A stretch of 38,383 bases of DNA from a virus (taxonomy: Duplodnaviria; Heunggongvirae; Uroviricota; Caudoviricetes). The DNA lies in IMG/VR virus record IMGVR_UViG_2711768032_000008, positions 1-38,383 of that record. One strand, written 5' to 3'. Within the stretch, counting starts at the first letter, position 1; each line of letters starts with the position of its first letter. The position numbers were made by a program, and so were the translations under genes. The notes under the pieces are model-generated. The model ran no database searches. It saw only the letters and a program-made list of their open reading frames with translations, and was not told the origin of the DNA. Positions 8,489 to 37,836 of this stretch are shown piece after piece.

Positions 8489-9556
8489 GTGAAGCTAACA
8501 AAAGAACAAAGTGATATTTTATATATCGTTAAAGGAATTGGGATTTTCACTGTTGTAATTGGTCATAGCTGGGGTATTCTTGTAAGTTTAACAAAACCTT
8601 ATTTTTACCATATGCCATTATTCTTTTTTATCGGTGGTTTTTTCCTGAGTGGTGAAGAACCAATTAAAGCCGCAACAAGAACCATCAAAAAAATCACCAC
8701 TTACTTAATAATAACATACATTATAATAGGGGTAGCATCAGAAATAATATCTTCCTTTTATGAAGTGGATTTTGGAACACCTTTTTCAACAGATACCATT
8801 AGAACCGTAGTTGCAACTTTAGAACATAATTTTCATAACAACGAATTATTTTTTGTCGGATGGTTTCTTTTTGCATATGCGCTGGCAAATATCACATCAG
8901 AAATAATACTATCATTACTATTGAAAATTAAAAACAATAGTTTAAAAAAAGCAGCACCTATTATCACTGCAATCATACTAGGTGTTGTATCCGTAAATTT
9001 CACAGCACATATTTATAAAAACTCCGAGTTGCAAATTTACAATCTAATCTCACAAGTGCTTTATGCCTCAATGTTTATGTTAATTGGATATTCCATCCGC
9101 AATATAGCGTTAAACTTTAAAAATAACATGTTATCTATCGTGTTATTCGCTTTAGTGGTGCTATTATATTTAACCGGCGTTGCAAAACAAATGATAATGT
9201 CATGGAGCACTTATCCGTCTGGTTTTATTATTTCAAGCATTGTAGCACTATCTTGTATTTTATTAATATTCTTTGCAGCTCAACATATAAACAAAACTGT
9301 TCTATCCGCCTTTTTTATTGATGCCGGAAAATACTCTAGAAACATAATGTCATACCACCTCTGCATATTTGTAATGTTAGACATATGTTTTTCAACCATA
9401 GGCTTATGGGATATGAAGAATACAAAAACGCTTTCTCACTATCAAAGTTCATATTCTCAACTCTTGTATCCTTTCATCGCAGCGGTAGTCCCATTATACA
9501 TAGCAAAAATATTATCGAGAGGGAAAAGCAAAATAATATCAATCACCTCTCAATAA
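8489..9556 (+). CDS. Acyltransferase family 3 integral membrane protein (OafA/Oac-like)
   Basis: 355 aa, about 10 hydrophobic segments, N-terminal ...GIGIFTVVIGHSWG motif typical of acyltransferase_3; AT-rich; GTG start; lies between tail fibre assembly and sheath genes (P2 Z/fun position). Confidence 0.7.
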   Translation: MKLTKEQSDILYIVKGIGIFTVVIGHSWGILVSLTKPYFYHMPLFFFIGGFFLSGEEPIKAATRTIKKITTYLIITYIIIGVASEIISSFYEVDFGTPFSTDTIRTVVATLEHNFHNNELFFVGWFLFAYALANITSEIILSLLLKIKNNSLKKAAPIITAIILGVVSVNFTAHIYKNSELQIYNLISQVLYASMFMLIGYSIRNIALNFKNNMLSIVLFALVVLLYLTGVAKQMIMSWSTYPSGFIISSIVALSCILLIFFAAQHINKTVLSAFFIDAGKYSRNIMSYHLCIFVMLDICFSTIGLWDMKNTKTLSHYQSSYSQLLYPFIAAVVPLYIAKILSRGKSKIISITSQ

Positions 9557-13138: not shown

Positions 13139-13713
13139 ACCGGACCTCCCGTGTTAGCGCCGCCTTTCAGAACTCCAGTATGCTCATGGTCATCAACTAC
13201 GATCCCGTTAGAACTCATTGCGCCGCCGCCCTGGGTGACGCCGCCATTGATCACCACCTCGCTGTTAATGCGCGTGGTGTCAGCCTCCACCACAAACTCA
13301 CCGGTTTTGTAGATGACGCTGTCTGATGCCTCGATCACCATGGATTTGATGCCCCTGACATGCCATCGTCCGGTGGCGGGTTCATACTCAAACCATCCCC
13401 CGTCCGGGTACTCCGTCACGCAGCCGCCCACAGAATCCGACGGTGGCGGAAACTGATTGGAGTAGATGGCGGGCAGCACAAAAGCGGTTTCCAGATTGCC
13501 GCCCATGCTCAGCACCACCACCTGCTCATCCGGCGACGGACACCACCACGTACGGGCACCACCGGCGCGCAGTGTCAGCCAGTTAATCCAGTTAGTTTCA
13601 AGCTCGCCCATTTTTACCCTGCACAGCCACTTTTCCCGGTCCACTTCGGTTACAGTGCCGATGCGGATCAGGTTGGTGATAAGGCGCATGATTTCGGTCA
13701 GTTGTGCATTCAT
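13135..13713 (-). CDS. V: Baseplate spike/assembly protein V
   Basis: Start chosen at MNAQLTEIMRL (tracked ORF extends to 13806 through AT-rich DNA); resembles P2 gpV from memory. Confidence 0.8.
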   Translation of the reverse strand: MNAQLTEIMRLITNLIRIGTVTEVDREKWLCRVKMGELETNWINWLTLRAGGARTWWCPSPDEQVVVLSMGGNLETAFVLPAIYSNQFPPPSDSVGGCVTEYPDGGWFEYEPATGRWHVRGIKSMVIEASDSVIYKTGEFVVEADTTRINSEVVINGGVTQGGGAMSSNGIVVDDHEHTGVLKGGANTGGPV

Positions 13714-13759
13714 AGATATATGATGACAGCTGAAAACTTGTTTATAACTTCTTGCAAAT

Positions 13760-13777
13760 TGTGGTATCGATGGTACA
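13760..13777. promoter_or_regulatory. TGT-N12-ACA dyad upstream of V (Ogr-type element, candidate P_V)
   Basis: TGTGGTATCGATGGTACA, internally palindromic; centred about 55 bp from the predicted V start. Confidence 0.4.
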
Positions 13778-13817
13778 AATTGATTAAAGGATAAAAAAAC
13801 AACCAATAGGTGGATGA

Positions 13818-14624
13818 ATGAGTGTTATGAATCCAATAAGTTCTAATATATTTAATGCTGAATTTTTAAATACCCCGGCAGCGGCACTTGCCGCATGGAT
13901 TTCCATTATTGGAGCTGCTATAACTCTGGTGACGATAGTTATAAGAGCACTATTCAAATATAGAAAGTCTCATGATGTAATTTTGAAAAAATCAGGAATA
14001 CCTGCGTTTATATTAAATTTTTTTCTTATACGAATATCATTAAAAAGGCTGCCTACTATCACATGGGCTGAAAAATCAATCGCGGTTCTCTTTTCACTTC
14101 TTTTTTTGTATGCAATTTATATTTTTGGTCCAGTTTTCATCCAAACCATTAGAACCCCACCAAATAGCACATTGCTTTATTGGATAAAGTCCGGTGAATC
14201 ATTTTACATATCAAAAAAACTGGCGACTGCAGCTACAATATTAACCACTCCTGATTGGGAAATATCAAAGGATGATTGCGAACAGTCATCCTCTGCCAGT
14301 TCAGAGAAGTACAAATCATTAACTATCGAACATAAAGAAATTCTTTGTAAACTACTAACCACTGATGAAGGGAATGCTTACATTGATAAAGCAGTCAAGA
14401 AGTTCGTTAAAGACAAATTCTTTATCTATTCCTTTACCCCAATGACCATATTTATTCTATTATGGCTTTCTTTGGGTTTTATGCTGACCATTCACTATTC
14501 TAAAAAAGTCAGGAAATATATTCTAACTGAACAAAAAAGTGCAATTCATTGGGCAAATGGTGAATTCAAGACAGAAGGAATCTATTCAATATATCAAGAG
14601 TTAGAACGTAAGACTCACCATTAA
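13818..14624 (+). CDS. Hypothetical membrane protein (prophage cargo between S and V)
   Basis: 268 aa, AT-rich, opposite strand to the late operon; hydrophobic segments (AAALAAWISIIGAAITLVTIVI, IAVLFSLLFLYAIYIFGPVFI, IYSFTPMTIFILLWLSLGFML); SD-like AGGTGG upstream; no family recognised. Confidence 0.6.
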   Translation: MSVMNPISSNIFNAEFLNTPAAALAAWISIIGAAITLVTIVIRALFKYRKSHDVILKKSGIPAFILNFFLIRISLKRLPTITWAEKSIAVLFSLLFLYAIYIFGPVFIQTIRTPPNSTLLYWIKSGESFYISKKLATAATILTTPDWEISKDDCEQSSSASSEKYKSLTIEHKEILCKLLTTDEGNAYIDKAVKKFVKDKFFIYSFTPMTIFILLWLSLGFMLTIHYSKKVRKYILTEQKSAIHWANGEFKTEGIYSIYQELERKTHH

Positions 14625-15012
14625 TACCTAACAGGCGGCGCTCTGCATAGCGGACCTCCGGGCCTTTATGGCTGACGCGGTCACGCAGGCCGTAGTGGTG
14701 AACCCGCGCAATACGTTGCACCTTACCCTCAAACTGCACGCTGGCAGAGTCCGCGTTGGCTGCAGTTTTCAGGTATTTTGTGGTGCGAAGCTTTGCAAAC
14801 ATCTGGCGTTTGATGCGTCCCTTCTTGCTGCGGGCTGTCACCCGGCGCGGCTCATAGCCGCTGCCATCAGGATTACGCTGCAGCCTGATGTTCTGCTGCT
14901 GCGTCCGGCGCAGCTGTTGCGCCAGTTGCCGCATCATACGACTGCGTGCTGCAGGCTCCAGATTTGCCAGCAGCGCCGTCAGCCAGTCATCCACCTTCTG
15001 CAGTTCATCCAC
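14566..15012 (-). CDS. S: Tail completion protein S (gpS-like)
   Basis: 148 aa; position and recalled similarity to P2 S; last ~17 codons lie in the AT-rich insert. Confidence 0.8.
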   Translation of the reverse strand: MDELQKVDDWLTALLANLEPAARSRMMRQLAQQLRRTQQQNIRLQRNPDGSGYEPRRVTARSKKGRIKRQMFAKLRTTKYLKTAANADSASVQFEGKVQRIARVHHYGLRDRVSHKGPEVRYAERRLLGINGESYVLTLDILNRFLLS

Positions 15013-15457
15013 GTTTCACCGTCCACATTTCTTCGGGTTCGTCCGGCTCCGGCACCGCTTCAACTCTTGACACTCTGCCGTCAGTGCTGACCAGCACACG
15101 CTCCGTCAGCTGCAGGTTCATGCTGATATCACACACATCATTACGCAGAATATCCACTTCAAAGGTGAACAGTTTTTCGCGCAGCTCCGGGTTGTTGATG
15201 GCGTCCGGCTGGTTCTCTCTGAGCCACAGCAACACGGGGGCCATCAGCAGATTCTGGTCACCGCTGAAATCCTCGATCACCACGTTCAGGGTGTAGCGGT
15301 ATTCCCATGACATAGAGCTGGCACCGGTTGCCACCAGTGAGCCGTTATCAACGAAAAGGTGCAGCTTATCCGGGTTGTTGCGGACATACGCCACCGCTTT
15401 ATTCAGGGCGCTGCGCAGGGACTGCGGTTTGTTCACTGTTTCGCTCCTGACACGCAA
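15005..15457 (-). CDS. R: Tail completion protein R (gpR-like)
   Basis: 150 aa (true start may be slightly downstream at VNKPQSLR); P2 order R-S. Confidence 0.8.
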   Translation of the reverse strand: MRVRSETVNKPQSLRSALNKAVAYVRNNPDKLHLFVDNGSLVATGASSMSWEYRYTLNVVIEDFSGDQNLLMAPVLLWLRENQPDAINNPELREKLFTFEVDILRNDVCDISMNLQLTERVLVSTDGRVSRVEAVPEPDEPEEMWTVKRG

Positions 15458-15689
15458 CTATCGTGTCGACTTTGTCGGCACAGACCGCCCAGGCGGCCTC
15501 GGTTTCATCCAGTGCCGCATTCAGATCACCGTTACTGCGCGGCGCTGACCTTTCCAGGCGGCACTGCGTCACTCTGGGACAGCCACTCACGGTAAGCTGC
15601 ACCTCCGGCGAAGGCCGGACGCTCCCGCAGCCTGATAATGTCAGCAGGCAAAGGAGCGTCAGCCCAGCGGCGCAAATCCTCGTTTTCAC
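15399..15689 (-). CDS. lysC: o-spanin lipoprotein (LysC/Rz1-like)
   Basis: 96 aa with lipobox LTLSGC after a signal peptide; in a different frame overlapping the 3' end of lysB and the start of R. Confidence 0.7.
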   Translation of the reverse strand: MKTRICAAGLTLLCLLTLSGCGSVRPSPEVQLTVSGCPRVTQCRLERSAPRSNGDLNAALDETEAAWAVCADKVDTIVACQERNSEQTAVPAQRPE

Positions 15690-15981
15690 GTTTCAGTTCC
15701 TCGATCCGGCGCTGGCGGCTTCGCAGCAGCGCGGTGGTATGTTCCGCTGCCGCATAAAGCCGCGTCTGCTCCCGGCTGTTGGTTTCGGTCAGAATGGACA
15801 GGCCGATCAACTGACTGTTCTTCTTTGTCAGTTCCTGCGTTTTGCTTTTCAGCGCCGTGTCCTGCGTCTCGATGATGTGACTGGCATTGTTAAGCCGCCA
15901 CAACTGCCAGCCCAGCGCCGCAATAGCCAGCACCAGCACGGCCGCCAGCAAGCGCGTCACGCCCCAGTTCCTTTTAAGCAC
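15532..15981 (-). CDS. lysB: i-spanin (LysB/Rz-like)
   Basis: 149 aa, N-terminal transmembrane segment then coiled-coil; follows the endolysin gene. Confidence 0.75.
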   Translation of the reverse strand: MLKRNWGVTRLLAAVLVLAIAALGWQLWRLNNASHIIETQDTALKSKTQELTKKNSQLIGLSILTETNSREQTRLYAAAEHTTALLRSRQRRIEELKRENEDLRRWADAPLPADIIRLRERPAFAGGAAYREWLSQSDAVPPGKVSAAQ

Positions 15982-16472
15982 CAGGCCAGTTCCCGCGCGC
16001 GGCGGTTCTCCAGACCTTTATTTTTCACACCGTTAACGTAAATCCAGCGCGGTAGCTGGTTGCATGCCTGCCACCACTGCTGGCGATTGATATATGACAC
16101 CATGGTTGACCTGCAGATCGCGCCGGTCCCCACATTGAAACCAATGCTCACCAGCGCATCGTAGACATGTTGCGGGGGCTTAACCGTCAGGCAGGCATCC
16201 AGCCTTTTTTCAGTCAGTAGTACATTGTTTATTAACCCCTGCGCCGCCTGCCGTTCCGTGATAGCTTTCCCCGGCACCACCCCGGATGTATTTCCGATCC
16301 CGTCGGTCCAGACACCCGCGCTGCACTGATAAGGCTGCAGGCGGCATCCCTCGTAATCAGCAATCAGTTTCAGCCCCTCAACGGAGGTATGGAGCGACTG
16401 AAAACCGGGCAGCGTGGCGGCGATGGCCAGCGCCGCCCCGACCATGCAGCGCTTAACGATTGAAGGATTCAT
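15957..16472 (-). CDS. K: Endolysin (phage lysozyme) with N-terminal SAR-type signal-anchor
   Basis: Start at MNPSIVKRCMVGAALAIAATLPGF (weakly hydrophobic Ala/Gly-rich segment), followed by a lysozyme-like domain; P2 K position. Confidence 0.8.
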   Translation of the reverse strand: MNPSIVKRCMVGAALAIAATLPGFQSLHTSVEGLKLIADYEGCRLQPYQCSAGVWTDGIGNTSGVVPGKAITERQAAQGLINNVLLTEKRLDACLTVKPPQHVYDALVSIGFNVGTGAICRSTMVSYINRQQWWQACNQLPRWIYVNGVKNKGLENRRARELAWCLKGTGA

Positions 16473-16668
16473 ATTCCCCCCGCGAAATTTTGCCGCCACG
16501 CAGCAATTTGAAGGACTGGTGTTTGTAGTACCAGTTGATCGCCAGCATCAGCACGCCAATCAGGACGCCGCCAACCGTTGACACATCCTTGAGCGACAGA
16601 TCGCCCAGCCATGCCAGCAGCACGGCGATGCAATAAGTGATAAAGGCGCTGATTCGTTCAAGCGTCAT
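16453..16668 (-). CDS. Y: Holin
   Basis: 71 aa starting MTLERISAFITYCIAVLLAWLG, two hydrophobic helices and a charged C-terminus; immediately upstream of the endolysin gene. Confidence 0.7.
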   Translation of the reverse strand: MTLERISAFITYCIAVLLAWLGDLSLKDVSTVGGVLIGVLMLAINWYYKHQSFKLLRGGKISRGEYESFNR

Positions 16669-16672
16669 AAAT

Positions 16673-16876
16673 TCAGTCCCATAGCTGGACGGTCTGCGCC
16701 GTGGTTGATGCCGGAATGTCCGGCAGATCCACCTGCAACCCGTGCGGTAAAAAGGGGCCGTATTCAGCCAGCCCCGGATTTGCCTGCAGAACCTGCTCCG
16801 TGACACCCTGCGTGCGCCCGTAATGACGCCAGCAAAGCGCGTCCACCGTGTCATACTGATGCGCACGCACTTTCAT
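16673..16876 (-). CDS. X: Tail protein X (LysM-like)
   Basis: 67 aa starting MKVRAHQYDTVDALCWRHYG; resembles P2 gpX from memory. Confidence 0.8.
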   Translation of the reverse strand: MKVRAHQYDTVDALCWRHYGRTQGVTEQVLQANPGLAEYGPFLPHGLQVDLPDIPASTTAQTVQLWD

Positions 16877-17340
16877 CAGATAAGCTCCACCGTACAGTGC
16901 GGTGCATCCTGCACCCGGCTGATAGCCCAACGGGCATCACGCCACAGATCACCGCTGGCCTCCGCCAGTTCTTCCCCTCGCTTCACGCCGGACGCCGTGG
17001 CGTCATAGTCCTGATAACGCTCATTGAGCACGGCGCGCGCCCAGCAAAAAACGGCGTTGTGGTAGTGCTGTATCCGCTCACTTTTGCCGTCCAGCATGTC
17101 CGCCGGAACCTCAGTCAGTGCCCGATAGCCCAGCATCTGCTGGCGGTTGCGGAATTCGTACAGCTCAGCGTTAACCTCAGAAATCGCCGTCAGCAGAACC
17201 TGCTTTAAACGCGGCTGCGTCACCGTGCCGTCAGTGCGCATCACACTGCGAAATTCCGCCAGGTCAACATCCGGCCAGAACGGCGTATTTTTGATGACCT
17301 CCGCCTGTTCCGGTGCCTGTTCGGGCGCAACAAACTTCAT
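16876..17340 (-). CDS. L: Head completion/stabilisation protein L
   Basis: Start at MKFVAPEQAPE (tracked ORF extends to 17403); P2 order M-L-X. Confidence 0.8.
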   Translation of the reverse strand: MKFVAPEQAPEQAEVIKNTPFWPDVDLAEFRSVMRTDGTVTQPRLKQVLLTAISEVNAELYEFRNRQQMLGYRALTEVPADMLDGKSERIQHYHNAVFCWARAVLNERYQDYDATASGVKRGEELAEASGDLWRDARWAISRVQDAPHCTVELI

Positions 17341-17433
17341 GCGGCTTTCTCCTGAAATAGAGGGCGGTGAACGGGGTTTTGATGAGGCTATGCCTTTCGC
17401 CACCCCGTGCCGCCCGTGCGCGGGGCACGTTCG

Positions 17434-18084
17434 TTAGCGGCTGTCATTGCGCAGTCTGCGCTCCAGCTGCTGCTTTTCTTTTTTCACGCCGCAACGGGAG
17501 TCCAGTTGCAGCGCATGGGTGAGGTGATTCAGGGCAGATGCCGGGTGGCTTTCGCTCAGCACAGCGCCGATGGCTTTATGCAGGCGCGCCCGCGACTGGT
17601 CCGGCATATCCAGATCGGTTGTCAGGTCCAGCGTCTGCAGGAGCAGATCGGCGTCAAAGCCGGTGGCGGCAAGCAGGGCACTTTGCGCCGCGTCTGCCAT
17701 TTCTTCTGCCAGCACGGTCTGCACGTTGCGGTTGCCCAGCGGCATCACCCAGCCATGGCGCAGCGCATGGCGCCCGATTTCCAGCGCACCGGCATAGTCA
17801 CCGGCATCGATGCGCCAGAGCATCACGTACATCAGCACGTCATCCTGCTGCGCAGCTCCGGCAGCCAGCACGCCGTCTGCCCAGGCGGCATATTTCGGCA
17901 GCAGCTCCACCTTAATCGCCGCCTTTTTCACCGTGGACTGGATGCCCCTGAGGCGGCGACGGTCTTCTGCCAGTTGCAGCAGCATCAGGTCATAGCCCGA
18001 GGCATGGCGAACACTGCCGCCCTCACGGGCGGCCTGTTCGGCCTGAATGCGCAGGCGGTGCTGCCGTGCGGGACTCAGGCTCAT
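17434..18084 (-). CDS. M: Terminase small (endonuclease) subunit M
   Basis: 216 aa; resembles P2 gpM from memory; downstream of the capsid gene. Confidence 0.8.
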   Translation of the reverse strand: MSLSPARQHRLRIQAEQAAREGGSVRHASGYDLMLLQLAEDRRRLRGIQSTVKKAAIKVELLPKYAAWADGVLAAGAAQQDDVLMYVMLWRIDAGDYAGALEIGRHALRHGWVMPLGNRNVQTVLAEEMADAAQSALLAATGFDADLLLQTLDLTTDLDMPDQSRARLHKAIGAVLSESHPASALNHLTHALQLDSRCGVKKEKQQLERRLRNDSR

Positions 18085-23252: not shown

Positions 23253-24656
23253 TTAAGGATCCCTGTTGATTTGTTTTTTTACGTGAAAAGCATTATTAAA
23301 TTTATCGACAAGCTCGCCATCTTCTAATGCGCTGAACAATGACCTGTTTTGCACATTGAATAATTCAATCTCATCGCCCCGCCCCTCAATATAGACATCT
23401 ATAATATGCGATGCCTTACTACCTTCTCCAAAGTCTCGAAAAAAACAAACTAGGTTATCTAAGTTGTTAGGTGTTATAGTTTTAAAGTTATCTAAAAAAC
23501 TTTGATATAATGAATTTATAACTTCAGACTGATTGTTATCAAATGAGTCGCGATATAACCCCCAAGCAATAGTGAAGTTATCTCTAGACTTTCCATCTAG
23601 AACTAACTCATTCATCTTTTTGATTTCATCATCTAGCATTAACTTATTATAATACCCATCCTTAACAGCACTAATAAGGATCCTATCCAAGTCAGATGTG
23701 TTGTGATATTTGTATTTATTGATAATTTCCTTCCAAGCTAGTTTCTTTGAGTCATTGTCTTTTTCATTGTTAAATGAACCATAGAACATAAATTCATCTT
23801 TTTCTATAAACTGTATCGGAGGTACTAATTCATCATCATTAAAACAATAATAGCTCCATGAAAAAAGTACAATAGAATGCATAATGGAGTACAAAATACC
23901 ATCATCCATATTCTTAGTATGAAGATACGCCTCATCGATTAAACGTTCTATTTTTTTTAGCACACGGATATTAGTTATTCCGACACTTGAGGTTAAAGAT
24001 CTCAAATCATCATGAAATCTTTTTTTTCCGTCATACGCGATTTGCGCACACTCATAAGGTGTTGGTTTAAACGTAAATTCAATATCAATTACTTTTTCTT
24101 TATAAGTTTCATAGTCCTTAGTTTCACTAGTCCCATCATTTAATAGCAATACCACTTTGCATTTTTTTTGTTCTTTAAGATGTGAAACCAATCCTAATAC
24201 ATCCTTCAACGGCAATCCATCGCCTTTCCTCTCTAAATCATCTATGCATACTATAATATTTTTTAGAGACATAAATGACAATGCTTCTAAGGCTGGTGCA
24301 AAATCTTTCACATAAGGCATGTTTTTCACAAAGTTCATTGCCTTTCTACCAAAACCCTCTGACAGAGCCAATGCATTTTGTTTAAAAGTTTCAATATTTG
24401 GCTCGATACCAATTGAAGATGTTGGAATCGCATTTTCAAATATAGAATACTTTAAGGCATCAAGAGAGTTCACTCCGAATAATGACACGTATGAATATCG
24501 TTCAAATTCTATATTAACTTCCTGCTTCGCTGTTTGTAAAAAATTATTCCAGCCATAGGTCTTTCCTACACCCCACTTACCTTTTATCGCTACTACCGCT
24601 GATTCTTCATTATTAAGAAAATTAAATATTTGCTCGCGAACTATAGCTATTGACAT
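23253..24656 (-). CDS. KAP-family P-loop NTPase (candidate anti-phage cargo)
   Basis: 467 aa; Walker A GKWGVGKT with the Trp typical of KAP NTPases, Walker B-like IVCIDDLERK; strongly AT-rich compared with flanking phage genes; between cos and Q. Confidence 0.75.
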   Translation of the reverse strand: MSIAIVREQIFNFLNNEESAVVAIKGKWGVGKTYGWNNFLQTAKQEVNIEFERYSYVSLFGVNSLDALKYSIFENAIPTSSIGIEPNIETFKQNALALSEGFGRKAMNFVKNMPYVKDFAPALEALSFMSLKNIIVCIDDLERKGDGLPLKDVLGLVSHLKEQKKCKVVLLLNDGTSETKDYETYKEKVIDIEFTFKPTPYECAQIAYDGKKRFHDDLRSLTSSVGITNIRVLKKIERLIDEAYLHTKNMDDGILYSIMHSIVLFSWSYYCFNDDELVPPIQFIEKDEFMFYGSFNNEKDNDSKKLAWKEIINKYKYHNTSDLDRILISAVKDGYYNKLMLDDEIKKMNELVLDGKSRDNFTIAWGLYRDSFDNNQSEVINSLYQSFLDNFKTITPNNLDNLVCFFRDFGEGSKASHIIDVYIEGRGDEIELFNVQNRSLFSALEDGELVDKFNNAFHVKKQINRDP

Positions 24657-32401: not shown

Positions 32402-32446
32402 ATGTAGGAATTTCGGACGCGGGTTCAACTCCCGCCAGCTCCACCA
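32402..32446 (+). repeat. attR core: displaced copy of the ssrA 3' end (45 bp)
   Basis: Identical to 1016-1060; no tmRNA 5' portion upstream. Confidence 0.85.
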
Positions 32447-32611
32447 CTTTTTAGTTGTTTGAAGTTCAATGAAGTCTACTAAGCCCACACAGCACAAGCT
32501 CTGCGGGCTTTTTTACGTCTATTGTCGTCCAGTGAGAATTGCTGAGAACTACGAGTTATGGCACCCTGAATGGGACCCACTAAGAAGGGTCCAAAAACCG
32601 AGGGTCCCAAA

Positions 32612-33841
32612 ATGGCAAAAATCGCTAAGAAGCTCACTGACACTGAAATCAAAAGCACCAAGCCAGCCGATAAAGAAATCAACTTGTTTGACGGTGATGG
32701 TCTGATTCTACGAATCGCTCCTTTGGCGAAAGGAGGCAAGAAAAATTGGTATTTCAGGTATGCAGTACCAGTGAGCAAGAAAAGAACCAAAATGAGCCTT
32801 GGGACATATCCTCACCTTACCCTTGCAAGAGCCAGAGCCTTACGTGATGAATATCTCTCCTTTCTGGCAAATGGTGTTGATCCCCAAATCCATAACAACG
32901 ATAAGGCGAAGGCATTAAAGAGTGCTACTGAGCACACTCTCCAAGCCGTAGCGCGGAAATGGTTAGATGAGAAGGTAAAGACATCAGGTATCTCACAAGA
33001 CCATGCAGCAGACATCTGGCGCAGCTTAGAGAGAAATGTCTTTCCCGGTCTGGGTAATGTCCCTATCAATGAGATCCGACCTAAGCTCTTAAAACAACAC
33101 CTTGATCCTATTGAGCAACGAGGCGTATTGGAAACTCTACGCCGTATCATTTCACGTCTGAATGAAATCTTCCGGTGGGCAGCTACTGAAGAACTTATTG
33201 AGTTCAACCCGGCTGACAACCTTGGTCAAAGATTCAGTAAACCAAAAAAGCAAAATATGCCTGCCCTTCCCCCAAGCGAATTGCCAAGGTTTATGGAATC
33301 TTTGACGAATGCGTCAATCCGGTTGGAAACACGTATGCTAATTGAATGGCAATTGTTGACATGGGTTCGTCCGGGTGAAGCCGTTCGCGCAAGGTGGTCT
33401 GATATTGATACAACCAACAGCATTTGGAACATTCCTGCTGATTTCATGAAAATGAAAAAGCTTCACAAAGTTCCTTTGAGTAAAGAAGCTTTGCGCATCC
33501 TTGAATTAATGAAATCAATAAGTGGGCATAGAGAATGGGTTTTCCCCAGCATAAAAGCGCCTCTTAATCATATGCATGAACAAACAGCCAACGCAGCTAT
33601 CATCCGAATGGGGTTCGGAGGCGAGCTTGTAGCTCACGGTATGCGTTCTATTGCACGAACAGCGGCAGAGGAGTCTGGTAAATTCAGAGCTGAAGTTCTT
33701 GAGGCAGCGCTTGCCCACTCGAAAAAAGATGAAATTATCGCAGCATACAATCGTGCAGAATATCTGATAGAGCGACAGAGTTTGATGCAATGGTGGAGTG
33801 ATTACGTTCAAGCTCAAAGATCAAATGCTCTGGTAGCCTAA
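32612..33841 (+). CDS. Tyrosine integrase, P4/CP4-57 (IntA)-like
   Basis: Start chosen at MAKIAKKLTDTEIKSTKP (tracked ORF from 32570); N-terminal LTDTEIK...DGDGL motif and C-terminal HGMRSIARTAA...AYNRAEY catalytic region. Confidence 0.85.
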   Translation: MAKIAKKLTDTEIKSTKPADKEINLFDGDGLILRIAPLAKGGKKNWYFRYAVPVSKKRTKMSLGTYPHLTLARARALRDEYLSFLANGVDPQIHNNDKAKALKSATEHTLQAVARKWLDEKVKTSGISQDHAADIWRSLERNVFPGLGNVPINEIRPKLLKQHLDPIEQRGVLETLRRIISRLNEIFRWAATEELIEFNPADNLGQRFSKPKKQNMPALPPSELPRFMESLTNASIRLETRMLIEWQLLTWVRPGEAVRARWSDIDTTNSIWNIPADFMKMKKLHKVPLSKEALRILELMKSISGHREWVFPSIKAPLNHMHEQTANAAIIRMGFGGELVAHGMRSIARTAAEESGKFRAEVLEAALAHSKKDEIIAAYNRAEYLIERQSLMQWWSDYVQAQRSNALVA

Positions 33842-33879
33842 GTATCAGAATAGCTAATATAATCCTGAAGGTAAAGAAA

Positions 33880-34296
33880 ATGGAAACCCTATTCAAAGTT
33901 TTTGAAAAATTTAGTTCCAGACCACTTTTTTTTATTTTTTTCGGACTCTCACTTTGTGAATTTTTTCAGAAACAATCTGTTCTGATGAATCCATCAGCAG
34001 ATAACATCGCGAAATTATTCGCAGCCATGATATTAGTTGTTTTTTTTACTTGGGGATTTGAATGGCTAATCTTCAAGTTCAATGTAAACCTTGAACCTCA
34101 TGATCAAGGCGATATTGGACCAACAATTGGAACGGCTACTTTAGCTGTATACTTAGTTTATGCCTTTCACTTTCTCAGTGAAAATCCTGAAGCATTAAAT
34201 TTAAAGTTATTAACTAACTCTGGCTTTATATACAGCACAACTCTATTATTATTCTCATTAGAATGCATGAAGCTTAGAAGACTTAAACAAAAATAA
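33880..34296 (+). CDS. Small hypothetical membrane protein (about 4 TM segments)
   Basis: 138 aa, AT-rich, hydrophobic stretches (LFFIFFGLSL, FAAMILVVFFTWGFEWLIF, TATLAVYLVYAFHFL, FIYSTTLLLFSL). Confidence 0.5.
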   Translation: METLFKVFEKFSSRPLFFIFFGLSLCEFFQKQSVLMNPSADNIAKLFAAMILVVFFTWGFEWLIFKFNVNLEPHDQGDIGPTIGTATLAVYLVYAFHFLSENPEALNLKLLTNSGFIYSTTLLLFSLECMKLRRLKQK

Positions 34297-34367
34297 ACAA
34301 CATCATTGTGATGATAAATATAAAATAGGCATGGCGAAAAAAAATCACCACGCCTAAAATATAATAA

Positions 34368-36134
34368 TTATGGTAGCATCATTGATACATAATCCACACC
34401 AATCCTTGAGCTATACTGAGACGCTATAGCCTGATATCTTTCTGCATAACCAGTTCTCAGTTGAGATTTAAGTTTGAGTCGGACAGGAACATTTTGCACG
34501 TTGCCATCCATATTACTTAAAAACACGGCAGAAATAATATTTTTTTCTTCGCCATCAACTGTTGTTCCATGATTCAACACCACCATATAATCAACAACAG
34601 GAAGCGTTTTATCCCCTTCGAAAATAGAGAGATATTTTCTTTGATTTTTATGCATTACATATATATATTTCGAATGTTCAGCAAATGGCAATGCTTTACT
34701 CTGACTGGCGTTAAAAAGCTCCAGAACTTTAATGAGCCTGTGCGGACTTAATCTTACATGGTGAGGGTCGTTACCCTGAGTAGGAACCAAATCACATGCC
34801 GCAGATACACATAAATACCATTTGTTCGACTCTGTATCAAAGAAAATAGTGCCAGTAGAAATATGACCATCTTCAAAATTCTTTGAAGACAAATTCATAT
34901 TTAAAGCATGATACATTTCGTGATAAGTATCATTATTTGATGGCAGATCCATTTTTGAAGAGCAATATTGGAGCAATGCAGCAACTCCGCTGTTAGCGTA
35001 TTCATTTGAATAGCTATCAAAAACACTTTTGATAAATTCATCCAGCGTATTATTATTTTTAAGTCTTTGATAAAGCTCTTCTGATAAATTACCAAATACA
35101 AAGTCAATATTTCTACATCTAATATCAGGCGAGTCTGATTTTAATATCTCATTTAACCACGCAGCTTGACCGTAATGATCGTTAGCCAAATGATTTACAA
35201 AAGATAAAGCCTCAGCTTCGATTGCATTCTGAATTTCAGATTTTATTAACTGATAATAAGATGGTTTCCATTCAATGAGAGAATCATTGAGAGTTTGCCA
35301 AATCCTATCTCCATCGTTTTCATGATCATCTTGAACCTTATGAAATAGGGAGACAAAGATATTACCACATTGAATCCATTTTACTCCGCTTTCATCACCC
35401 CGAATGACATTGCCAGATGTGTTGCTAGAAATAATTGCATTTCTAGACACAGCATATTCTGCAATCATTTTTGCAATGAAGTTTTTATCCTTTTGATCCT
35501 CCAACACAGCATCATCATGTATTAATCTTTTAATTCTTCTACAAGGCTTACTGTCTTTAATATAGGCTATTGTTTCATCTCTTGTGAGAGCTTTATTACC
35601 ATTATCATTTAAGTTCGGTAATACAACGTCTTCCCAATAACTTTGGACATCTTCATTATCGTAGTCAATGATCAAGCTGTTGATATCCAGAGCACCTTTG
35701 AGAGTCGATGATATCTGCATCCAAACCGTTTCTAAATTCTCTCTAGTATATATTACAATCATATTTAAATGATCGGAGTCTTTCAAATCTTGTAATAGTT
35801 TAAGTGTTTTATCAGGTGCATTATTATCAAGATGATAATCTACAATAATAAGATCTGATTTCCTAATCCGATCCACATCGAAATTAACAGAACCATTGTC
35901 AACATCACAAATCATATTTTTAGATTGAAAAAAGCTCTCAAGAGTAGCGGCTCGTTTAGATGAGTCAATTTTGTTGTAGTCTAAATCAACTTCGTTATTC
36001 AACGCCCTGATTGATTCAGAATACGTCAGAAAATCGTCATCAATCATGACAACGGAACGAATTGCATTTTCGCAGAAAGTTTTCTGGACAAGAGAATTAT
36101 AATTTGCCACTGTCATATTAGAACTCCACTCCAT
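34368..36134 (-). CDS. Receiver (REC)-like domain protein with large uncharacterised C-terminal domain
   Basis: 588 aa; N-terminal VVMIDDD ... DLIIVDYHL ... NMIVIYT resembles a response-regulator receiver fold; the remaining ~450 aa match nothing I recognise; AT-rich; 17-bp overlap with the upstream kinase-like gene. Confidence 0.6.
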   Translation of the reverse strand: MEWSSNMTVANYNSLVQKTFCENAIRSVVMIDDDFLTYSESIRALNNEVDLDYNKIDSSKRAATLESFFQSKNMICDVDNGSVNFDVDRIRKSDLIIVDYHLDNNAPDKTLKLLQDLKDSDHLNMIVIYTRENLETVWMQISSTLKGALDINSLIIDYDNEDVQSYWEDVVLPNLNDNGNKALTRDETIAYIKDSKPCRRIKRLIHDDAVLEDQKDKNFIAKMIAEYAVSRNAIISSNTSGNVIRGDESGVKWIQCGNIFVSLFHKVQDDHENDGDRIWQTLNDSLIEWKPSYYQLIKSEIQNAIEAEALSFVNHLANDHYGQAAWLNEILKSDSPDIRCRNIDFVFGNLSEELYQRLKNNNTLDEFIKSVFDSYSNEYANSGVAALLQYCSSKMDLPSNNDTYHEMYHALNMNLSSKNFEDGHISTGTIFFDTESNKWYLCVSAACDLVPTQGNDPHHVRLSPHRLIKVLELFNASQSKALPFAEHSKYIYVMHKNQRKYLSIFEGDKTLPVVDYMVVLNHGTTVDGEEKNIISAVFLSNMDGNVQNVPVRLKLKSQLRTGYAERYQAIASQYSSRIGVDYVSMMLP

Positions 36135-37836
36135 TGAACTGGATCACAAAATTAGCGCCATCTTTTATTAAATAGTTATCGCCTTCATCAGGTTCTGAAT
36201 ACCATATTTTATGATGTGCAACAGCAAGGTTTTCTCGACATAGATACAGACCTACCCCATGTCCATTTGCTCTTTTGCTATAAAATAGTTCAAATAGTCG
36301 CGGGATATCATCGGTATCAATTGCCGGACCAGAATTTGCTATGATAACCAAAGAATTCACAAAACCAATCTTTATGAGCCTATTATTTGACAGACTGACC
36401 CAATACATTGCATTGTTGATAATATTAGTAAAAACAGGATAGATCCTTGATGGTATATCTGTTATTGCGATTTGCTTAAACTCTTCACTAAATTCAATAG
36501 TTATTCGTTGCCGTTCGAAACGCTCCCCAAAGAACTTCAGGACATAATCCATGATATTTTTTCCAGTTATTCTCTGCCTGGATTGATAACCTGATATTTT
36601 CAAAGGTGATAAGAAACGTATTTGTTGAGTAAGCGATCTGTGAGCATTTAACGCCAATGAAAAACCAGGGTGTTCTTTTACAGAAGTAGGAAGAGAGTTT
36701 AGTCCTCTGGTTACCATAGAATCCATTTCTTCAAGTTCATGAGATGTTATCTCAACACTAATACCTAACTGTGCAAGCGCGTTTAAACTTTTAGCTTTTT
36801 CTTCAAAATATGAGCGTTCTTCTTCAGATAATGAGAATGCTGAATCTAAGTTTATACCTTCAAATAATCTATCGAGACCTTTTATTATTGATTGATATTT
36901 GAAAGTTAGGGTATCAACTGACTCAACATATAAACTATCGAGCAAATTAAACACATTTTCAATTTGTGAATCATTATCTATTGAATCAACAACTGATATA
37001 GTTTTAGCATAATAATCACTTCGATCAACCTTTATTTCATCGGCCCATTTTTTTAAAAGAGAATGTATCTTCTCCTCTATCGTGTTATTAAACTTAGTTA
37101 GTTTAGAATTAATAATACCTTGATTTTTTTCAAGGTGATTTTTCGCTGCCAATGAAGGCTCAAGTTTATTTAATTCAGAATCAAGTTTATTAATTGCTAA
37201 CTTCATTTGTAGAATATACGCAGAGAACTCATTAAATTTATCTCTGTAGTCTCTATATTTCTCTTCATACATTCCAAGTTTTGGAGGTTTGATAGGCGTT
37301 TTAATTTCACTGCGCAACGCATCTAAGTTTGTAAGATCACTGTCTATAATTTTAAGATAGTTTAAATCTAACGAACCATCAGTTTTATCAAGCTTAGTTT
37401 TCAGCCTTTTAACAGCCTCCAAGGAAGCATCAAGAACTGGTGTCTGATTCTTCAAAGCTTCTGAAAAACTTTTTTGTGTTGATTTTCGAGCTTGTTGTTG
37501 AGCAGATTTTCTTAACTCTTTTTCACGCTTAACTTGTTCTAAAAGCTCTTTACGGTCATCAGAACGTGAACCAAAAAATCTATCAGCAAGTTCAGTTAAC
37601 AAATTAGATATAATAGTTTTCAGTTCTCTTGCAGCCTGGTATCTTATGAATCCCTCTCTCCCCGACTTATCTTTCAGCTCTTTATTACTGGATTGAGTAA
37701 TTCCAATATAACCAAAAATCCTTCTATTAGACCAATAATATCGCCCTGCATTCCATGAACGTCTTTCTTCTATCTGGAAGAAATCATTATCTACTCGACC
37801 ATAAGGTAATACTCTCAAGCTATCCCTAAAAATCAT
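36118..37836 (-). CDS. Histidine-kinase-like protein (H-box + HATPase_c), 5'-truncated by IS3
   Basis: C-terminal TSHELEEM (H-box-like), N-box NIINNAMYW, G1 IANSGPAID, G2 GHGVGL; long coiled-coil-rich N-terminal region; frame stays open upstream of the first Met to the IS3 junction (in-frame stop only at 37963-37965, inside the IS). Confidence 0.6.
   Translation of the reverse strand: MIFRDSLRVLPYGRVDNDFFQIEERRSWNAGRYYWSNRRIFGYIGITQSSNKELKDKSGREGFIRYQAARELKTIISNLLTELADRFFGSRSDDRKELLEQVKREKELRKSAQQQARKSTQKSFSEALKNQTPVLDASLEAVKRLKTKLDKTDGSLDLNYLKIIDSDLTNLDALRSEIKTPIKPPKLGMYEEKYRDYRDKFNEFSAYILQMKLAINKLDSELNKLEPSLAAKNHLEKNQGIINSKLTKFNNTIEEKIHSLLKKWADEIKVDRSDYYAKTISVVDSIDNDSQIENVFNLLDSLYVESVDTLTFKYQSIIKGLDRLFEGINLDSAFSLSEEERSYFEEKAKSLNALAQLGISVEITSHELEEMDSMVTRGLNSLPTSVKEHPGFSLALNAHRSLTQQIRFLSPLKISGYQSRQRITGKNIMDYVLKFFGERFERQRITIEFSEEFKQIAITDIPSRIYPVFTNIINNAMYWVSLSNNRLIKIGFVNSLVIIANSGPAIDTDDIPRLFELFYSKRANGHGVGLYLCRENLAVAHHKIWYSEPDEGDNYLIKDGANFVIQFNGVEF

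Follow-up and report, generated by a model that had tools for sequence, protein, structure and literature searches.

What kind of lysis module does a Fels-2-like prophage keep between its tail genes X and R, and which of the functions needed to open the cell does it encode? The question is raised by four closely packed minus-strand genes (holin, endolysin, lysB and lysC) at positions 15399-16668 of a stretch of caudoviral DNA of 38,383 nucleotides (nt), IMG/VR record IMGVR_UViG_2711768032_000008, which is called here, at its full length, the window. An earlier interpretation made from the letters alone, the sequence-only reading, had described at this place a compact lysis cassette with an endolysin of the signal-anchor-release (SAR) type and two overlapping spanins, lacking any separate lysA-like gene. 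Our analysis indicates that this lysis cassette is real, functional-looking and correctly interpreted, and that it is a member of the already known Fels-2/RE-2010 type. With a probability of about 0.85, it belongs, as its lysis module, to a Fels-2/P2-like (Peduoviridae) prophage inserted at the ssrA gene.

The cassette and its prophage

Every protein of the cassette matches a curated family above the cut-off of that family, and the four genes are packed between X and R with consecutive overlaps of 20, 4, 158 and 38 nt, just as compact as had been claimed. The limits proposed at the time also proved exact, since they run from the stop codon of lysC to the start codon of the holin gene. The structural, replication, CI and integrase genes of the surrounding prophage are of the P2/Fels-2 type. 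This prophage spans ~31.4 kb between two direct copies of the 45 bp at the 3' end of ssrA (1016-1060 and 32402-32446). The ssrA gene itself, which encodes a transfer-messenger RNA with the tag ANDENYALAA, occupies positions 698-1060, and its last 45 nt recur exactly 31.4 kb downstream; these repeats are the attL and attR sites of the Fels-2-like prophage that holds the cassette. The GC content of the four genes is the same as that of the surrounding late genes, and a scan of positions 13500-17500 for promoters and terminators gave no signal above shuffled expectation. Given this uniform composition and the absence of such signals in the region scanned, there is no sign of a separate transcription unit, which is consistent with transcription of the cassette within the late capsid/tail operon, as in P2.

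The coordinates of the cassette, of its flanking tail genes and of the main protein motifs are collected in Table 1. Gene R starts at the GTG of 15436, behind an AGGAG motif, and its length is equal to that of R in Fels-2. Three longer versions of the cassette genes were considered and rejected. A holin starting at GTG 16866 (137 amino acids, aa) would use a frame that runs through gene X. For the endolysin, a start at GTG 16499 (180 aa) does not fit the species-level relatives, whose Met lies 6-8 residues ahead of a conserved K-R-C. For lysB, GTG 15981 (149 aa) was discarded in view of relatives such as RE-2010 and locus L081, which carry at position 15960 an ATG, where the window has a GTG, behind a GGAG/AAGGA motif.

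Table 1. Positions of the lysis genes, of the two flanking tail genes and of the principal protein motifs in the window.
Feature	Position	Strand	Remarks
Holin	ATG 16668 to TAA 16453	minus	71 aa; start 4 nt past X stop
Endolysin	ATG 16472 to TGA 15957	minus	171 aa; 20-nt overlap with holin
lysB (inner-membrane spanin)	GTG 15960 to TAA 15532	minus	142 aa; 4-nt overlap with endolysin stop (GTGA)
lysC (outer-membrane spanin)	GTG 15689 to TAA 15399	minus	96 aa; overlaps lysB by 158 nt and R by 38 nt
Tail gene X, upstream flank	16673-16876	minus	PF05489, E 1.2e-33; 60% identity to P2 X
Tail completion gene R, downstream flank	15005-15436	minus	PF06891, E 1.4e-46; 56% identity to P2 R
Predicted SAR segment C9-F24	16401-16448	minus	follows K7 R8; Cys9 codon 16446-16448
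Catalytic/regulatory motif E41-G-C43-x6-C50-x5-T56	16305-16352	minus	catalytic Glu, Cys and Thr, plus cage Cys43
LysC lipobox L18-S19-G20-C21	15627-15638	minus	Cys21 codon 15627-15629

An endolysin of the P1 Lyz type

The endolysin belongs to the T4-lysozyme family (glycoside hydrolase family 24, GH24), as indicated by matches to PF00959 (E 3e-37) and phrog_7. Its best sequence match in the PDB is the endolysin Lyz of phage P1 (1xjt, E 4.4e-28). A model obtained with AlphaFold2 (AF2) retrieved the same entry, the active full-length P1 Lyz, as top fold match, with a template modelling (TM) score of 0.74 over 170 columns that include the N-terminus, and the SAR endolysins R21 and DLP12 RrrD as the next ones. 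The family is defined by a Glu-8X-Cys-5X-Thr triad, and in P1 Lyz the catalytic Cys remains bound in a disulfide up to the moment of activation (PMC3556154). Neither P1 Lyz nor R21 has its SAR domain cleaved, and both domains are released upon collapse of the proton-motive force (PMC6116005). In the window, the triad reads E41-x8-C50-x5-T56, with a spacing identical to that of P1 Lyz (E42/C44/C51/T57), and residues C9, C43 and C50 are the exact counterparts of its switch cysteines C13, C44 and C51. According to the work of Xu et al. in 2005, the partner of the catalytic Cys51 in P1 Lyz is reportedly Cys44, whereas the releasing thiol is said to be Cys13 of the SAR domain.

The N-terminus of the protein reads MNPSIVKR-CMVGAALAIAATLPGF, that is, basic residues followed by a weakly hydrophobic segment rich in Gly, Ala, Ser and Thr, a known trait of SAR domains. 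Residues 9-24 comprise 16 uncharged positions with 50% of those four residues and a mean Kyte-Doolittle (KD) hydropathy of 1.84, so that in length, composition and hydropathy the segment is close to the proven SAR domains of P1 Lyz (0.55/1.94), R21 (0.65/1.60) and HP1 Lys (0.56/2.14). The transmembrane domain (TMD) of LysB from the window, taken as a contrast, gave 0.40 and 2.64, so the endolysin segment is the less hydrophobic of the two.

Comparative data were obtained from 80 species-level relatives of the endolysin, which span 58-96% identity. Each of the three cysteines, as well as the E41/T56 motif, is kept in all 80, while the hydrophobic segment of 16 residues that begins with the invariant Cys9 occurs in 38 distinct versions. 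A Cys invariant within a segment that otherwise varies argues that the segment would be retained, as in a SAR domain, because such a residue would not be conserved in a discarded peptide. Among representatives at 50% identity, a Cys is located within the N-proximal 40% of the segment in 19 of the 22 distinct Cys-type N-terminal segments; the three Cys-less ones all start with the first residue of the called protein, an indication that their start codons were miscalled. Together with the closest relative and the composition of the segment, these conserved cysteines support the endolysin as a putative SAR enzyme with P1 Lyz-like disulfide isomerisation, in agreement with the type proposed by the sequence-only reading.

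Overlapped spanins under selection in two frames

LysB matches the TIGR03495 phage_LysB equivalog with 169.3 bits (cut-off 92.75) and the Rz-like spanins of phrog_89 (E 5.8e-45). Its architecture is that of an inner-membrane spanin (i-spanin), with an N-terminal TMD at residues 4-18 followed by a helical periplasmic domain. LysC, in turn, matches the P2_Rz1 equivalog NF038368 with 125.1 bits (cut-off 27) and PF23793 LysC (E 6e-14). Its gene starts out of frame inside lysB, in the +1 frame and with a Shine-Dalgarno-like GAGG 9 nt upstream of the GTG, and ends 133 nt past the lysB stop, an arrangement typical of overlapped spanins. In the window, lysC is the sole coding frame for 95 nt (15437-15531). 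The complete lipobox, L16-T-L-S-G-C21, would leave a mature part of 76 aa after cleavage at Cys21, as corresponds to an outer-membrane spanin (o-spanin), and the Gly at position +2 leads us to expect sorting to the outer membrane.

That this lipoprotein frame across the lysB-R junction encodes an o-spanin had been claimed before on the basis of its LTLSGC lipobox, under the proviso that the frame be conserved, and conserved it is. All 82 viral loci with coverage of the 291-nt frame have it intact, GTG start included. A Cys aligned with C21 stands behind some lipobox variant (LSGC, CAGC, CVGC, LSAC and others, the version of P2 itself being L-C-A-G-C) in 78 of 78 species-level loci. Where lysC is the only coding frame, nucleotide diversity amounts to 0.025, 0.028 and 0.108 at codon positions 1, 2 and 3, and the ratio of non-synonymous to synonymous polymorphism (pN/pS) is 0.14 in the lysC frame versus 3.0 and 1.4 in the other two. 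Within the lysB/lysC overlap, the least variable site is lysC position 1, which is position 2 of lysB, as expected if both frames are constrained; selection acts on both. In the overlap with R, variation tracks the third position of R and the tail of LysC is accordingly variable.

A class II holin of the HP1 family

The holin shows two hydrophobic segments (residues 6-22 and 29-44) and, after them, a charged C-terminus, which corresponds to a class II topology, and its gene has one start codon, without a dual-start antiholin. The protein matches the HP1-family holins of PF16080 with 38.9 bits (cut-off 28.8) and the holins of phrog_20 (E 1.5e-26), and NCBI gives its homologues the name 'HP1 family phage holin'. 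With 22.1 bits against PF04971, the family of the P21 holin S (S21), it falls under the cut-off of 26. These matches assign it to the class II holins of the HP1 family.

Alternative readings

Several observations weigh against a SAR endolysin served by an HP1-family holin. The AF2 model of the endolysin is moderately confident, with a predicted local distance difference test (pLDDT) of 75.7 that drops below 50 at residues 1-10 and 52-64, and our literature search found no experiment on the endolysin of the window or on that of Fels-2. The hydrophobic segment has only 16 residues and holds the A-x-A motifs A14-L-A16 and A16-I-A18, so cleavage by signal peptidase I is possible, and there is the precedent of T4 RI, whose presumed SAR domain proved to be a cleaved signal peptide (PMC8385771). 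The holin, moreover, is unlike that of HP1 in pairwise comparison and its first TMD is strongly hydrophobic. With K7 and R8 as a positive n-region and the 16 residues as an h-region, the N-terminus could be taken for an ordinary Sec signal peptide, removed to leave a soluble periplasmic enzyme controlled by other means, as in the Oenococcus fOg44 lysin or in T4 RI. Predictors tend to label such segments as signal peptides, and SignalP did so for HP1 Lys, although the experiments of its authors point to a SAR endolysin (PMC7312051); a call of this kind therefore carries little weight against a SAR domain. Such a cleavage, however, would discard Cys9, which does not change in any relative while its neighbours do and which co-occurs with the C43/C50 pair, its isomerisation partners in P1 Lyz. 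An A-I-A motif is also present in the SAR domain of P1 Lyz, which escapes processing (PMC6116005), the window endolysin has no polar c-region downstream of its own motifs, and the fold match to active full-length P1 Lyz extends through the N-terminus. A cleaved signal peptide seems to us quite improbable here, and a SAR segment remains the preferred interpretation. For lysC, the thought that an alternative-frame ORF with a GTG start, left out of some annotations such as the RefSeq record of RE-2010, might be an unexpressed chance opening over the lysB-R junction has practically nothing left to it: the equivalog score far above its cut-off, the GAGG in front of the start, a P2 homologue with the same length and Cys positions, and the third-position bias of its variation all speak for a gene, and conservation had already refuted the idea of a chance frame.

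Less settled is the manner in which the holin would act. As a pinholin, it would form small channels that depolarise the membrane, as S21 and the HP1 holin do, instead of the large holes of other holins, and its small size, its two TMDs and its pairing with a SAR endolysin are in line with this possibility. The namesake of its PF16080 family, the HP1 holin, acts as a pinholin alongside a SAR endolysin of the Lyz type (PMC7312051), and a profile comparison (hhalign) with S21, whose query sequence was checked to be 100% identical to that of phage 21, gave a borderline probability of 51% (E 1.5e-4) over residues 3-51. The first TMD, however, lacks the weakly hydrophobic, SAR-like character of pinholins: its mean KD is 2.10 with 35% of Gly, Ala, Ser and Thr, in comparison with 0.64 and 63% in S21 and with 1.32 and 50% in the HP1 holin. 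The score under the PF04971 cut-off points in the same direction, as does the comparison with the HP1 holin, in which BLASTP found no alignment and hhalign gave a probability of 7%. Nor does a SAR endolysin demand a pinholin, since these enzymes also function with holins of other kinds, such as LydA in P1 (PMC9025707). On balance, we place the pinholin a little below even odds. Be it a large-hole holin or a pinholin, the protein would depolarise the membrane and release the SAR endolysin.

Presence and absence of a LysA-like gene

The absence of a separate lysA-like ORF, the last element of the earlier description, follows from the GTGA in which the endolysin stop overlaps the lysB start by 4 nt, leaving no room for one. 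An extra gene of ~378 bp is found at this point, between endolysin and lysB, in Fels-2, SopEPhi, the Yersinia phage MLG42 and E. coli prophages. Its product has 125 aa and, by eye, four TMDs; it belongs to the NCBIfam family NF038378 ('DNZ54_00345 family') and was called 'LysA-like antiholin' by the authors of MLG42. A Pfam search with two of the LysA-like alleles from relatives gave no match, and pairwise BLASTP of the alleles to P2 LysA was not significant; some species-level alleles match both queries.

The LysA-like gene is present in 61 of 83 related viral loci; the other 22 are compact. At the species level, where one genome per species was selected by its endolysin alone, the 77 informative loci are divided into 59 compact and 18 with the gene. 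The layout without lysA is a common natural state, and probably the commoner one. The short similarity at the junction does not discriminate between a loss of the LysA-like gene, giving rise to the compact form, and an insertion that produced the long one.

Some peculiar versions of the gene were also observed. In the Fels-2 reference (NC_010463, locus L001; 1159-1534), the annotation shows the LysA-like gene as two separate hypothetical ORFs, apparently the result of a frameshift, and Fels-2 may be functionally lysA-less. The proteins P0024, P0060 and P0080, together with ~40 similar single-member clusters, are 'lysozymes' of 296 aa in which the endolysin runs into a third LysA-like allele. 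The two parts are joined by a short out-of-frame stretch (...REMACVYREQTEM-KKKLISGLF...), and these proteins look like 1-nt frameshift read-throughs in assemblies, not true fusions.

Relatives and comparison with known systems

The complete cassette of 1270 nt is 85-88% identical to those of SopEPhi, Fels-2, SEN8, MLG42 and RE-2010, and ~95% identical to cassettes of E. coli prophages, a match being present in 1026 of the 5426 complete E. coli genomes. At the protein level, the nearest endolysins and holins (96-98%) come from Citrobacter, and an exact search of genome contigs for the 36-nt junction revealed no identical genome. The set of holin, endolysin, LysB and LysC found in the window occurs in the 83 viral loci mentioned above, and its HP1-family holin, Lyz-type endolysin, LysB and LysC, all placed between X and R, make it a cassette of the Fels-2/RE-2010 type. 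The nearest described layout is that of RE-2010 (NC_019488, genus Felsduovirus), collinear over the 1270 nt at 85% identity and with the same four genes, the same overlap of 4 nt between endolysin and lysB and the same lack of lysA. It differs by ~15% of DNA divergence, an endolysin allele 77% identical and a lysC unannotated in its RefSeq record. Fels-2 (NC_010463), SopEPhi and MLG42 are 87-88% identical across the four genes and keep the same position between X and R, and Fels-2 annotates its endolysin as P1 Lyz-like. These phages and the E. coli prophages differ from the window in the extra DNZ54_00345-family gene.

The loci L001-L083 also offered a mosaic panorama. Holins 99% identical are accompanied by endolysin alleles either 97% or 77% identical to that of the window, a 68% holin allele whose TMD2 differs is found in two of the loci, and the LysA-like gene has three alleles or more, which altogether points to frequent recombination between the lysis genes. 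In one viral contig (L004, 1794-2504), holin and endolysin read as a single fused ORF (...KISRGNMNPSIVKRC...), which is a case of either a lost holin stop or a sequencing error.

The comparison with the Y-K-lysA-lysB-lysC cassette of P2, which the sequence-only reading had put forward as a check, stood for the position between X and R and for LysC but not for the other genes. The LysC proteins are 43% identical, have 96 aa and Cys residues 21, 37, 43, 70 and 80 in both phages, and their genes overlap R by 38 nt in both; the lysC of P2 likewise begins in the +1 frame of lysB and stops inside R (PMC3091744). In the case of LysB, only the C-terminal third aligns with its P2 counterpart (38%), whereas the N-terminal two thirds are unalignable. 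P2 Y (a class I holin of 93 aa with three TMDs) is unrelated to the window holin, and P2 K, a soluble protein without SAR segment, is unrelated to the endolysin, BLASTP having found no similarity in either comparison; lysA is absent. A published spanin census assigned the i-spanins of Fels-2 and RE-2010 to the KS14 family and their o-spanins to that of P2, within the 'overlapped' class in both cases (PMC6139136), and our results with LysB and LysC fit this grouping.

For the endolysin, the closest characterized system is P1 Lyz (1XJT/1XJU), with which it shares the GH24 fold, the E-x8-C-x5-T triad, a cage Cys two positions after the Glu, ~45% identity in the catalytic core and an N-terminal segment rich in Gly and Ala with a Cys in its N-proximal portion. 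The hydrophobic segment of P1 Lyz, however, has 20 residues instead of 16, the Cys of the window segment occupies the very first position after K-R, unlike in P1 Lyz, and the P1 lyz gene is unlinked from the holin genes of its phage. A linked arrangement is found in the hol-lys genes of the P2-like Haemophilus phage HP1, where a small holin without dual start overlaps, as in the window, a Lyz-type endolysin. HP1 Lys keeps the EGC...C motif and a Cys11 in its SAR segment, is 35% identical to the window endolysin and is followed by a LysB-like gene. Both cassettes differ in that similarity between the holins is limited to the Pfam family level and in that the HP1 genes are located after the tail tube gene and not between X and R.

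A proposed course of lysis

To the gene structure, family memberships, conservation and selection on lysC observed in this cassette, homology to P1 Lyz, HP1, P2 and lambda adds a probable mechanism, in which uncleaved export, disulfide isomerisation, holin triggering and membrane fusion would follow one another. The holin, with its two TMDs, would accumulate in the inner membrane, while the Sec system would export the endolysin in parallel, with residues 9-24 left uncleaved and anchoring the enzyme at the periplasmic side of the energised membrane. The tethered form would be inactive because the catalytic Cys50 is presumably locked in a disulfide with Cys43. Triggering of the holin would collapse the membrane potential and let the SAR segment leave the bilayer, after which the free thiol of Cys9 would attack the cage, forming a Cys9-Cys43 bond and freeing Cys50, so that the muramidase could degrade the murein. 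The complex of inner-membrane LysB and the outer-membrane lipoprotein LysC, once released from the murein, would fuse the two membranes and complete lysis. Since the cassette has neither a LysA-like protein with four TMDs nor a dual-start antiholin, the timing of this process would rest on the holin alone.

Other features of the window

A second tyrosine integrase gene (32570-33841) is found directly after the second ssrA repeat, followed by two large minus-strand genes with Response_reg_2 (PF19192) and HEF_HK + HATPase_c domains; PADLOC gave no match for either of these two. The region 32570-37836 has the appearance of another island, inserted at ssrA in tandem with the prophage.

Within the prophage, an AT-rich ORF of 268 aa (13818-14624, plus strand, 31-36% GC) with a DUF6216 match is located between tail genes S and V and shares 59 nt at its 3' end with the 3' end of S. 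It occupies the exact position of the non-essential orf30 of P2, to which it shows no sequence similarity, and it had no PHROG or PADLOC match. A gene for a KAP-family P-loop NTPase (23253-24656, minus strand) matches in PADLOC the candidate defence system PDC-S49 (E 1e-26); it lies in the accessory region immediately beyond the capsid-gene end of the prophage, adjoining the presumed portal gene ORF. Finally, an acyltransferase gene of the Acyl_transf_3 family (8489-9556, plus strand) adjoins, on the opposite strand, the tail-fibre assembly gene and may be a serotype-converting moron.

Significance of the cassette

The cassette is a textbook combination of holin, SAR endolysin and overlapped spanins, whose close relatives already have sequences, annotations and entries in the published spanin census (PMC6139136), and its import beyond correct annotation is small. 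In this regard, some database entries of the endolysin start at Met10 or extend upstream, and the start to be annotated is the ATG at 16472, thereby covering Cys9 and the SAR segment. The lysC gene also merits annotation despite its overlap with two genes, as it is missing from some RefSeq records. A bolder idea, which we regard as unlikely, is that lysis timing in a SAR-endolysin system is naturally switched by the presence or absence of the LysA-like gene, which is polymorphic among otherwise near-identical cassettes, and that the holin, with its strongly hydrophobic first TMD, is a third type of trigger, distinct from S21-type pinholins as well as from classical large-hole holins. The natural occurrence in this family of cassettes with and without the LysA-like gene offers, in any case, a clean comparison for studies of lysis timing.

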